A stretch of DNA of 64,000 nt, from positions 5,248,001 through 5,312,000 of the forward strand of contig OY762266.1 of the NCBI GenBank assembly GCA_963665285.1, given 5' to 3'. Source of the DNA: Candidatus Poribacteria bacterium. GTDB lineage: Bacteria > Poribacteria > WGA-4E > PCPOR2b. A program made the translations under genes and the position numbers. Each line of letters begins with the position of its first letter. Position 1 is the first letter of the stretch. Below are positions 23,833 to 26,388 of the stretch, one piece after another. The notes under the pieces are model-generated. The model was not told where the DNA came from. It saw only the letters and a list, made by a program, of their open reading frames with translations, and ran no database searches.

Positions 23833-24140
23833 TAAAGATACCGCCAAAGCACAGCATAATCCGAGTTATCATCTAGTGAATATCCATCAATTTTTCGGCT
23901 AAAATTGAGCTGCTTAATCTCTCACTCCAGCAACTTCTATGTAGGTCGATTTTCCATAATCGACATGCTATCGACTAAATTAGCCACAGAGGCAGGAGAC
24001 CCGCTATATTCTTGATATCTCCATAGAAAATCAATTAAAATTATCGCTTTTCTCTGCGTTCTCTACGTCTCTGCGGTGTACATTGGTAGACAGCAACCCG
24101 CCTTAGCACACCACACCGAAATTAAGGAGAAAATAGTCAG

Positions 24141-25355
24141 TTACCCCACCCTAAAGGGTTTGGGCTTGTTGCCCGTTCCCCGGGGTTTATTGGGTTCTGC
24201 GCTTCTTTCCCTTTCGGGTGTTTCGGGGTCGTTCACTACCGACGCACCTCCACGCAAGGCTACAGCAGCCTTTTGAATGTTTATCGCAGCGTTATGGTCT
24301 CTATTCAAGACTAGCCCACAGTGCGGGCAATCATGGACTCTATCGGACAGGTTCTTAGGCACTATCTCACCGCAGCCCGAACATTTCTGGCTTGTGTGGT
24401 GGGGTTTCACTTTTTTGAATTGCTTACCGGCACTTTCAGCCTTGCTTTGCAGTTTCAATCGAAAACTACCCCACCCCGCGTCGGATATGCTCTTGGCGAG
24501 GTAATGGTTGTTCAACATATTGGTAATGGTCAAGTTCTCTACAGCGACCTCATCACATCGTTCAAGGATGCGGTGGGCTGCCTTGAACTGAAAATCCTTG
24601 CGCTGATTCGATATATGTTCATGGCAGCATGCCACAACTTCGCGCTGTTTCGCCCGGCGGTTACTGCCTTTGTTGCACCGTGCAAGTATCCGTTGGTGTT
24701 TGCCAAGTTTCTTTTCAGCCTTACGATAGTGGCGAGGGTTGGGGATGTGTTCACCGTCAGAATCAACGACAAACGCGTTCAACCCGACATCAATGCCAAG
24801 TGTGGTATTCACAGGGGCTTCCATAGGGTCGGGGACTTCAACGCAGATAGCAACATACCAACCGGACGCTTTACGGCTGATGGTCATCGTCTTAATCTTG
24901 CCGTCGGGCAACGGGCGGTGATAGCGAATCTTGAGGTGTCCAACTTTGGGGACAACAACGCGGGCAAATTTCCGATGCACGGTGCGTATCAGTTGTTTTG
25001 ACAGGTGGTTGAAAGTCATCGACCGATACCGCCGTTCGCCTTTGAAGCGCGGGAAGCCCGGTTCACCACCAGCTTGGACACGGCGAAAGAACGCCTTGTA
25101 TGCTTTATCCAAACGGCGCATCGCATCTTGGAGGACATCAGCATGAAGCCCTGCAAACGCTTTCGATTCTTGTTTAAGGTCTGGCAAAGCGTTGGCTTGG
25201 GTCGTCCACTTGACCGATTCGCTAGTTGTCTTGTAAGTGTCTATCCGCCATGCAAGCGCTTGGTTGTAGAGCATTCGCAGCAATGCAAGCCAAATGGTAA
25301 AGGTCTTTCGTTGTTTCGTCGTAGGATAGGCACGATATTCAAATGTCTTTTTCAT
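24141..25355 (-). CDS. tnpB: RNA-guided endonuclease TnpB
   Basis: FEYRAYPT HTH, GFPRFK, GIDVG (RuvC-I D), VENL (E), TSQKCSGCG...CPHCG zinc finger, RDHNAAINI (D). Confidence 0.95.
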   Translation of the reverse strand: MKKTFEYRAYPTTKQRKTFTIWLALLRMLYNQALAWRIDTYKTTSESVKWTTQANALPDLKQESKAFAGLHADVLQDAMRRLDKAYKAFFRRVQAGGEPGFPRFKGERRYRSMTFNHLSKQLIRTVHRKFARVVVPKVGHLKIRYHRPLPDGKIKTMTISRKASGWYVAICVEVPDPMEAPVNTTLGIDVGLNAFVVDSDGEHIPNPRHYRKAEKKLGKHQRILARCNKGSNRRAKQREVVACCHEHISNQRKDFQFKAAHRILERCDEVAVENLTITNMLNNHYLAKSISDAGWGSFRLKLQSKAESAGKQFKKVKPHHTSQKCSGCGEIVPKNLSDRVHDCPHCGLVLNRDHNAAINIQKAAVALRGGASVVNDPETPERERSAEPNKPRGTGNKPKPFRVG

Positions 25356-25450
25356 TGGGATTCGGCTTTCTGGCTTTCATCGCCTCTACTAAAAGGGTGT
25401 GGGAGGCACCGTCCAGCGACGGGTAGTATCCCCCCACGAAAGCCATAAGA

Positions 25451-25479
25451 AGTGTACCATATTTCGCACTATTATTCAA
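25451..25479 (-). promoter_or_regulatory. tnpB promoter
   Basis: TTGAAT-17bp-TACACT with extended -10 TG. Confidence 0.6.
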
Positions 25480-25542
25480 CAAAAAAGGAGCGGGCTGGAG
25501 ACCTCAGCCTAAAGGCATGGGGGCTCCATCCCGAAGATTTCG

Positions 25543-26388
25543 ATGAAATATCGCTTCGCTGAAATGATCTGGTACGAAACCAAAGAGGCCGCCGAACAGG
25601 ACCGTGTCGCCGTCCTCCCCGTTGCAACGTATGAAGACCACGGTCCCCACCTCCCTGTTGATACGGATGTCGTCCTCTGCACGGGCATCTGTGAACGCGC
25701 CGTAGCACGTATCCCATCGGAGGCAGTGCTTGCACCGCCGGTCCCGCACGGTTACAGCCCTCATCACATGGATTTTCACGGGACACTCACTATCGGTTGG
25801 GACACGTTTATTAAGTACGTTAGAGATGTCTGTTGCAGCCTTGCCCATCACGGCTTTAAGCGAATCCTCATTGTCAACGGTCACGGAAGCAACGCCTCTC
25901 CTCTCGACCTCGCAGCGCGACTGACAAATATCGAATATGAGGGAAAGATCCTCTGTGCCTCGGTGAACCACTGGGACACCCGTAAAATTAAGGATGTCGG
26001 TGCCGAGGTCAGGGATTCTGAGTATGGTGGGACATCACACGGAGGAGAATACGAAACCGCCCTCTATCTCGCCTTAAAGCCGGATCTGGTTGATATGAGC
26101 AAGGCGGTCGATGAAAGGTCACCGTTGCCACCGAGTTTCAAAACGGATCTGCTTGCAGGCACCCATCCCCAAGGGTCGGCTGCGCGTTTGATACCTTACT
26201 GGAGTTCGCAAACTGCAAGCGGCGTATTAGGCGATGCAACCAAAGCCACCGTGGAAAAAGGGGAAAAGTTCTTGGAAGCAGCAACAGAAGGACTGGTTGA
26301 GCTGATACGTGAATTGAGGGGAACGGAAATTCCACCCCGCCGCGACCAACACGAACACCATATATCAAGAAAAACCGCATGGACTTAG
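25543..26388 (+). CDS. Creatininase family amidohydrolase (MftE-like fold)
   Basis: EDHGPHLPVDTD, GYSPHH, NGHGSN, HGGEYET, SGVLGDAT.AT.EKG. Confidence 0.92.
   Translation: MKYRFAEMIWYETKEAAEQDRVAVLPVATYEDHGPHLPVDTDVVLCTGICERAVARIPSEAVLAPPVPHGYSPHHMDFHGTLTIGWDTFIKYVRDVCCSLAHHGFKRILIVNGHGSNASPLDLAARLTNIEYEGKILCASVNHWDTRKIKDVGAEVRDSEYGGTSHGGEYETALYLALKPDLVDMSKAVDERSPLPPSFKTDLLAGTHPQGSAARLIPYWSSQTASGVLGDATKATVEKGEKFLEAATEGLVELIRELRGTEIPPRRDQHEHHISRKTAWT

Follow-up and report, generated by a model that had tools for sequence, protein, structure and literature searches.

A TnpB-only IS200/IS605 family of Candidatus Poribacteria that favours start codons and may replace the ribosome-binding sites it displaces

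The start-codon bias of a family of tnpB-only IS200/IS605 elements in Candidatus Poribacteria is real: the target, TCAT, reads ATGA on the opposite strand, and the element therefore lands backwards in front of start codons, where it is found in clear excess. Judging from sequence, with a probability that we put at roughly 60%, the left end of the element replaces the ribosome-binding site (RBS) that its insertion displaces, so that start codons would be safe landing sites, the inserted state would be stable, and the gene behind the element is probably on. The element class itself is ordinary, while its start-codon behaviour is unusual and well backed and the rescue mechanism is plausible. The copy at the center of this analysis lies in a 64,000-nucleotide stretch of contig OY762266.1 (the window, from the genome referred to here as G000), in which the following features can be assigned.

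22711..23832, + strand: DUF6807 gene next upstream, probably sharing an operon with the creatininase-family gene, start provisional (Pfam and ortholog context)
24116..24135, - strand: putative guide portion of the omega-RNA, made of the 20 nt flanking the right end and antisense to the native RBS (from TnpB biology)
24124..24129, + strand: native Shine-Dalgarno (SD) AAGGAG, now 1.4 kb from the ATG (window and empty orthologs)
24136..25542, - strand: tnpB-only IS200/IS605 element (IS1341 type), no target duplication (sister copies and empty orthologs)
24136..24139, - strand: cleavage motif TGAC, right end (sister copies)
24141..25355, - strand: tnpB, 404 aa, stop codon within the right end (PF12323/PF01385/PF07282; NF040570 above cut-off)
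24144..24166, - strand: subterminal hairpin of the right end, also the predicted 3′ end of the omega-RNA scaffold (sequence and fold)
25356..25450, - strand: structured tnpB leader, z -3.09 (sequence and fold)
25485..25490, + strand: SD-like AAGGAG carried by the element immediately before the 5′ foot of the left-end hairpin and predicted to act as a replacement RBS (sequence and fold)
25491..25533, + strand: hairpin of the left end, 43 nt; on the mRNA strand, -27.9 kcal/mol and z -3.56 (fold)
25534..25542, + strand: 9-nt spacer from hairpin to ATG (sequence)
25543..25546, - strand: target motif or TAM, TCAT, which includes the host start codon (137 of 168 resolved junctions)
25543..26388, + strand: creatininase-family amidohydrolase gene, 281 aa, intact (PF02633, E 5e-70)

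The element, 1,407 bp in length, is separated from the native AAGGAG by a spacer of 6 nt (24130-24135) and directly adjoins the host ATG at 25543. Its ends are fixed by the flanks of sister copies, which show TCAT before the left end and TGAC closing the right end; five other full-length copies in G000 are 94-98% identical, and about 15 more are more distant. Subterminal hairpins are present at both ends, and there are no terminal inverted repeats. Insertion 3′ of a 4-5 nt motif without duplication, which the initial annotation had taken over from the IS200/IS605 family, agrees with both the sister copies and the empty orthologs, and 50 junctions in related genomes are contiguous to within 5 nt in the empty G000. 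Of the TTCAT target proposed at the same time, TCAT stands as the family motif, whereas the T at the fifth position is merely preferred (ATGAA makes up 62% of non-start and 81% of start insertions). In IS608, a 4-nt DNA guide at the foot of the hairpin pairs with the cleavage motif. By this rule the combinations CAAG/TGAC, GAAG/TCAC, and GAAA or GAGA/TCAT fit; the window copy and one subfamily have GAGC, although their target is TCAT.

The TnpB protein shares the fold of ISDra2-type TnpB (PDB 8bf8, E 7.6e-58), and in alignment to that type its RuvC residues D189, E273 and D353 are intact. The omega-RNA candidate has no Rfam match, and the right-end region taken whole (145 nt) does not fold beyond shuffled sequence (z -1.03); nowhere in the assembly does the predicted guide have a self target exceeding 10 seed matches. 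A weak -35/-10 pair at 25479-25451 was read by eye only and is absent from the promoter-scan list. The tnpB leader (25356-25450) is related to the leaders of the genome's other tnpB-only families, whose proteins are only about 30% alike, and it also contains a short frame overlapping the tnpB start.

Among the best 20 matches to the creatininase-family gene, one of which is G000 itself, all 19 orthologous loci (17 from the same genus and 2 from the same family) lack the element and carry an SD at the same spacing; in two of the 19, the 18 nt before the junction are identical. The empty junction anticipated in related genomes is thus found with the native RBS in place, and the position first assigned to the element, exactly between RBS and start codon, proves correct to the nucleotide. 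The gene had further been described as cut off from both its RBS and its promoter. The separation from the RBS holds; since in most orthologs the gene lies closely behind the DUF6807 gene, its promoter is probably situated upstream of the latter. The creatininase-family gene is 96-99% identical to its same-genus orthologs, and its product falls below the NCBIfam cut-offs for MftE, creatininase and IolN. The G002 ortholog (G002:C1:781990-782828) is split over two frames, through either a frameshift or an error of assembly. On the 3′ side of the gene, at window positions 26500-26580, there are REP-like palindromes resembling those that flank a solo Y1 transposase (RAYT-like; L001:1153-2037).

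For the census of insertion sites, 34 elements were delimited in G000 (20 at TCAT, 1 at TTAT and 13 at TCAC), and genes were called with a simple purpose-made caller after element removal (5,068 genes in the first run). Relatives contributed all 129 right-end matches of G004 and G002, plus 11 from G008, G018 and G005 chosen by end sequence; 6 of these 140 had left ends without a clear boundary. Including G000, 168 junctions were available from an end library that favours known motifs, 137 of them at TCAT, five of these shifted by one base. When the nine sites common to several genomes are counted once, there are 128 distinct TCAT sites in five genomes, comprising 64 start codons, 45 intergenic positions, 5 stop codons and 14 positions inside called genes, compared with a genomic background in which 1,901 of 53,420 ATGA are start codons (3.6%); the genomes are kin, and the background is that of G000. 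The bias toward start codons that had been suggested from the TCAT target is thus supported, and more firmly than when it was proposed. Outside genes, 64 of 124 sites are at starts, against an expected share of 0.20, or 0.23 after a sequence-context fit (p ~1e-12), the context model having been fitted on non-start insertions. That model lifts the expected share so little that extended target pairing was rejected as the cause of the bias; in IS608, such pairing acts 5′ of the target (PMC5934647).

Other counts give a similar picture. Tabulation of the sister insertions relative to ATGs, as the initial annotation had advised, places 9 of the 20 TCAT copies in G000 on start codons, and a test on G000 alone gives 9/19 (p 0.017). 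Under a fixed rule, 67 of the 137 TCAT junctions are start-like, 1 is an internal Met and 69 are other, the corresponding numbers for the genome background being 3,058, 5,993 and 44,346, and 52 of 117 junctions from relatives map to the N-terminus of a G000 ortholog. A held-out set comprised 97 additional loci with 95 end matches, 59 of them known from the earlier census and 8 without a resolved junction; it yielded 19 new scorable TCAT sites, of which 15 are start-like, in a set rich in the RNA type. The share at starts differs among element types, from 33 of 48 for gene-less RNA copies and 21 of 57 for full-length tnpB copies (p 0.013) to none of 21 for 48-bp mini-copies, which have neither the SD nor the outer stem. 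TCAC-target tnpB copies, with the same SD, are at starts in 0 of 10 cases, a weak comparison given that GTG starts are rare, and four of five TCAC-target gene-less RNA copies are on GTG starts. The ATGA target also overlaps TGA stop codons, for example at G000 756596, as seen at the five stop-codon sites among the 128.

In the first 90 nt of genes there are no insertions among 1,891 ATGA, although this supply nearly equals the 1,901 ATGA available at starts. An insertion that parts a gene from its RBS should be no less harmful than one placed 30 nt deeper, yet it is the deeper insertions alone that are missing. The genes behind start-site copies match ortholog length in 39 of 44 cases, and the other five consist of four that run to the limit of the retrieved DNA and a single truncated gene (L141). 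The start-site proteins that were scanned (65, being 70 minus 4 duplicates and the creatininase-family gene) include two from G004 that are encoded by the sole copy above cut-off: rplS, with a full-length tnpB copy at its start, and tsaB, also with an element copy at its start. Both genes are essential in model bacteria. Also among the start-site genes are ribBA, aroB, thiE and uvrC. At three start sites common to G002 and G004, dS is 0.20, 0.22 and 0.12 and dN is 0.003, 0.018 and 0.036, corresponding to dN/dS of about 0.02, 0.08 and 0.30, which fits selection while carrying the element if the insertions are ancestral; the element copies at these sites neighbour each other in the tree, with bootstrap values that do not settle the matter. 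At three of the nine shared sites the element types differ, so that repeated insertions could have occurred. Sites at which one genome has a tnpB copy and a second genome a gene-less one (L076/L110, L057/L141, L163/G000 3940127) may be hot spots or may reflect replacement of the element's interior.

The displaced sequences have changed as well. The native RBS behind element copies is weaker than that of the empty ortholog by a mean of 1.43 kcal/mol (median 0, p 0.0035, 42 sites; L163, whose ortholog is filled, was left out), compared with a mean change of 0.10 kcal/mol in 190 neighbouring control genes, and a weakening of at least 5 kcal/mol is seen at 6 of the 42 sites versus 6 of the 190 control genes. 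Among 35 mappable start sites (a further 25, unmapped or not near, are outside this count), five (L102, L136, L156, L161 and L191) have the native leader and RBS deleted and the gene uninterrupted, a pattern found at 0 of 20 non-start sites. The deleted leaders measure 17-103 nt and extend from an upstream ATGA to the start ATGA (four in G000 and one in the G004 allele). Such deletions would be expected if the right end joined a second target or if two copies recombined. Excision could not restore the RBS of those genes.

These observations bear on the possibility that the window insertion just abolishes, or much reduces, expression of a catabolic gene that the host can spare, with rescue confined mainly to short gene-less copies. 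The antisense tnpB places 1.4 kb with stops in all frames (13/3/19) before the gene, which invites polarity; full-length copies are less frequent at starts; the genome has several creatininase-family paralogs (9 matches); and the insertion is young (98% identical to a sister), so that an intact gene proves little. Nonetheless, full-length copies are still enriched at starts, one of them before rplS, and two (L102 and L191) have replaced the native RBS altogether. A knock-out should also affect the first 90 nt of genes equally, where insertions are nil, and this explanation is considered unlikely.

The preferred reading, in which the gene is rescued, draws on the architecture of the left end. 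On the mRNA strand, the window copy presents the geometry of a split RBS, with an SD, a stable hairpin, a short spacer and the AUG in succession, and hence a candidate for the signal inside the left end that the initial annotation had itself named as a refutation; if used, it would speak against the initial view that the gene is silenced until excision. Of the 112 distinct copies in which a stem was recovered, 105 have 8-10 nt between hairpin and ATG; the anchored stem search, which replaced a noisy free folding, missed 17 copies, the window copy among them. Paired with the genome's 16S tail, the element SD has a median of -7.7 kcal/mol, compared with -7.3 for native sites, and only 5% of 441 genomic hairpin-plus-T-run controls reach -5 kcal/mol. 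In several subfamilies the end hairpin comes in a bulged and in a perfected palindromic form, which suggests that template switching has corrected it repeatedly; the bulged and the perfected form are at starts in 13 of 46 and 20 of 36 cases, respectively (p 0.15).

Other routes to expression were considered. An SD directly before the ATG was rejected, as the 13 nt adjoining the ATG pair at just -1.5 kcal/mol in most copies, and so was an open frame antisense to tnpB or coupled translation across the element, given its stops in all frames; none of 20 start-site tnpB copies has a stop-free frame on the back strand. The window copy contains a 9-codon frame that ends in an ATGA overlap (25517-25546) and has no RBS. 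Scans returned 4 outward promoters against 3.7 expected by chance and 4 internal terminators against 4.5 expected. The RNA runs contain 0.06-0.15 of the words.

Several points count against a hairpin-split RBS. The window copy would need antisense read-through of 1.4 kb, and no outward promoter above chance was seen; the hairpin, at 43 nt, is far larger than the 16-17 nt removed in phage T4; full-length copies are less often at starts than short ones; and, as a weak argument, the TCAC-target tnpB copies have this SD without being at starts. It could also be that the SD-like motif reflects only the structure of a DNA end and that start-site genes are expressed independently of it, through an A-rich leader, S1-type loading or leaderless transcripts from an unrecognised outward promoter. 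The motif also complements a possible second DNA hairpin arm (GGAGG...CCTCC) and may thus be a by-product. Start and non-start copies show no difference in SD strength (56 versus 56, p 0.28) and only a weak one in accessibility (0.73 versus 0.53, p 0.018, one of several comparisons), a poor-SD subfamily exists with some of its copies at start sites, and about a fifth of called genes lack a 4-nt SD. In three start-site copies (L113, L141 and L149), a different IS has entered the loop of the left-end hairpin, and two of these copies precede frames of at least ortholog length. By contrast, subfamilies that have diverged in sequence retain the whole combination of SD, stem and 8-10 nt spacer, the 13 nt next to the ATG offer next to no pairing of their own, and mini-copies devoid of SD and outer stem are never at starts. 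SD-independent initiation accordingly seems about as improbable as a knock-out, if not slightly more so.

Under the split-RBS reading, host transcription would run through the element or restart inside it, and on the resulting mRNA the 43-nt end hairpin would fold, bringing AAGGAG to within 9 nt of the AUG. Insertions at start codons would therefore survive selection, while those a few codons inside would be purged. TnpB, equipped with a guide derived from the flank, would recut any joint left by excision and so prevent loss of the element; nucleases of this kind have been found to cleave such joints, which brings the element back (Meers et al., bioRxiv 2023.03.14.532601). Because of this recutting, the state is predicted to be stable rather than a switch. 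Where the native RBS has been lost, the host would come to depend on the element.

The initial annotation had instead envisaged a reversible switch, with the gene off until TnpA excises the element and with excision and re-insertion toggling expression. Scarless excision, as described for the IS200/IS605 family (bioRxiv 2023.03.14.532601), would restore an intact native RBS in the window, and the same site has been used repeatedly (three shared sites with different element types). However, no IS605-type TnpA was found in the 99%-complete G000, in which the three Y1 matches are all solo, none beside a tnpB and one flanked by REP-like repeats. Relatives possess tnpA+tnpB elements with different ends and proteins, whose TnpA matches nothing in G000, and a search for an autonomous partner gave 0 matches in metagenome contigs. 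In runs X1 and X2 there are contigs that span the two junctions and do not differ from the window, and an empty joint is absent from X1, X2 and X5, with the proviso that contigs drop rare variants and cannot exclude rare excision. In X6 there is a filled contig with 4 differences in 542; an empty joint from the same source was rejected as an excision product, as one side measures 20 nt and the contig that starts at the ATG differs at 28 of 641 nt, so that it appears to derive from a divergent strain. With no IS605-type TnpA found, a nuclease-intact TnpB of the kind that counters loss of the element (bioRxiv 2023.03.14.532601), weakened or deleted RBSs that excision would not restore, and intact genes including rplS and tsaB, which being essential cannot be mostly off, a reversible switch is very improbable.

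Established phase switches, such as IS256/ica and IS492/eps, show filled and precisely emptied alleles in one strain and have their transposase present. The window element differs in both respects, with no empty joint among the contigs of X1, X2 or X5 and no IS605-type TnpA found in G000. An IStron combines a group I intron with an IS605 element and in this way limits the harm to the host gene; rescue by the window element would instead act at translation initiation, and only at starts. An IStron or other intron was rejected here, as there is no Rfam match and no room outside tnpB. Likewise rejected was a TldR, a nuclease-dead TnpB repressor with a mutated RuvC that resides outside mobile elements, since the residues of the window TnpB are intact and the gene lies in an element. 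ISDra2 has the target TTGAT.

The closest published relatives are found among elements with an N|ATGA target, namely IS605B-1_MA of Microcystis, IS605B-1_HM of Halomonas, and ISC1-1_MA (Kapitonov et al., 2016, PMC4810608). Like the window element, members of this group are TnpB-only IS605 elements that lie in front of ATGA without duplication, and the termini of ISC1-1_MA, GT...CG, are those of the window copy, which thus has both the target and the termini of the group. The main text of that paper does not contain the term "start codon" and describes neither docking on starts nor translation rescue. The ISGst1-5 elements of Geobacillus (Meers et al., bioRxiv 2023.03.14.532601) resemble the present family in having non-autonomous TnpB, omega-RNA-only and PATE copies with common ends; they excise without a scar and are retained by their nuclease, and the ISGst5 IscB recognises a TAM of TTCAT. 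They differ in having a known cognate TnpA, none having been found for the window element, and they are not known to dock on start codons. IS608 and ISDra2 also have subterminal hairpins, a 4-nt target chosen by base-pairing and a second stem-loop 3′ of the left hairpin, but they are autonomous, and the IS608 target is TTAC rather than TCAT (PMC5934647). A functional precedent is offered by T4 genes 25 and 38, in which a hairpin between SD and AUG shortens the spacing from 27 to 11 and from 22 to 5 nt (PMC3014915); in the window the hairpin belongs to a transposon end, the spacing would drop from 52 to 9 nt, and the function is a predicted one. A search of the literature, with subscription journals and bioRxiv supplements outside its scope, returned nothing on such elements docking at start codons or replacing an RBS. 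The ATGA target class has therefore already been published, and start-codon docking seemingly has not.

Further copies with the same ends lack a gene (L082:2345-2801, + strand; L159:701-1036, - strand; G000 3459559-3461364, the last interrupted by a DDE-type IS). These gene-less copies consist of a promoter-like stretch and a structured RNA of 250-300 nt that has no Rfam match at the gathering score; its long closing helix and its loop pseudoknot each keep their pairing through one double change (11 rows), and all 67 genome matches of this form are from Candidatus Poribacteria. Single-hairpin PATEs of 48 bp, with a TCAC target and a TGAC end, occupy 11 sites in G000 (e.g., 2932990-2933037 and 5839650-5839697). 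Three further tnpB-only families in G000 (e.g., 229699, 2521178 and 4498931) have TTAC, TTAA or no clear target, none has a tnpA, and one TTAA-target tnpB copy is on a stop codon. There are thus many young non-autonomous copies in a genome in which no IS605-type TnpA was found.

Conceivably, though this is put forward tentatively and at somewhat less than even odds, start codons have become the niche of this lineage. The element end would serve as a portable split RBS, the gene's own RBS would be deleted or outlived, and the gene, even rplS or tsaB, would become dependent on the element in a toxin-free form of addiction, locked by a guide that is antisense to the RBS; the pseudoknotted gene-less copies that reach GTG starts would represent the furthest stage.

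If the preferred reading is true, replacement of the translation signal would be a third route, beside self-splicing and outward promoters, by which an IS becomes harmless in operons, and a 43-nt hairpin would be tolerated between SD and AUG. It would explain the wide spread of ATGA-target TnpB and IscB elements and predicts that many host genes have been reset to one common leader. For genome annotation, it would carry the warning that such insertions are not knock-outs.
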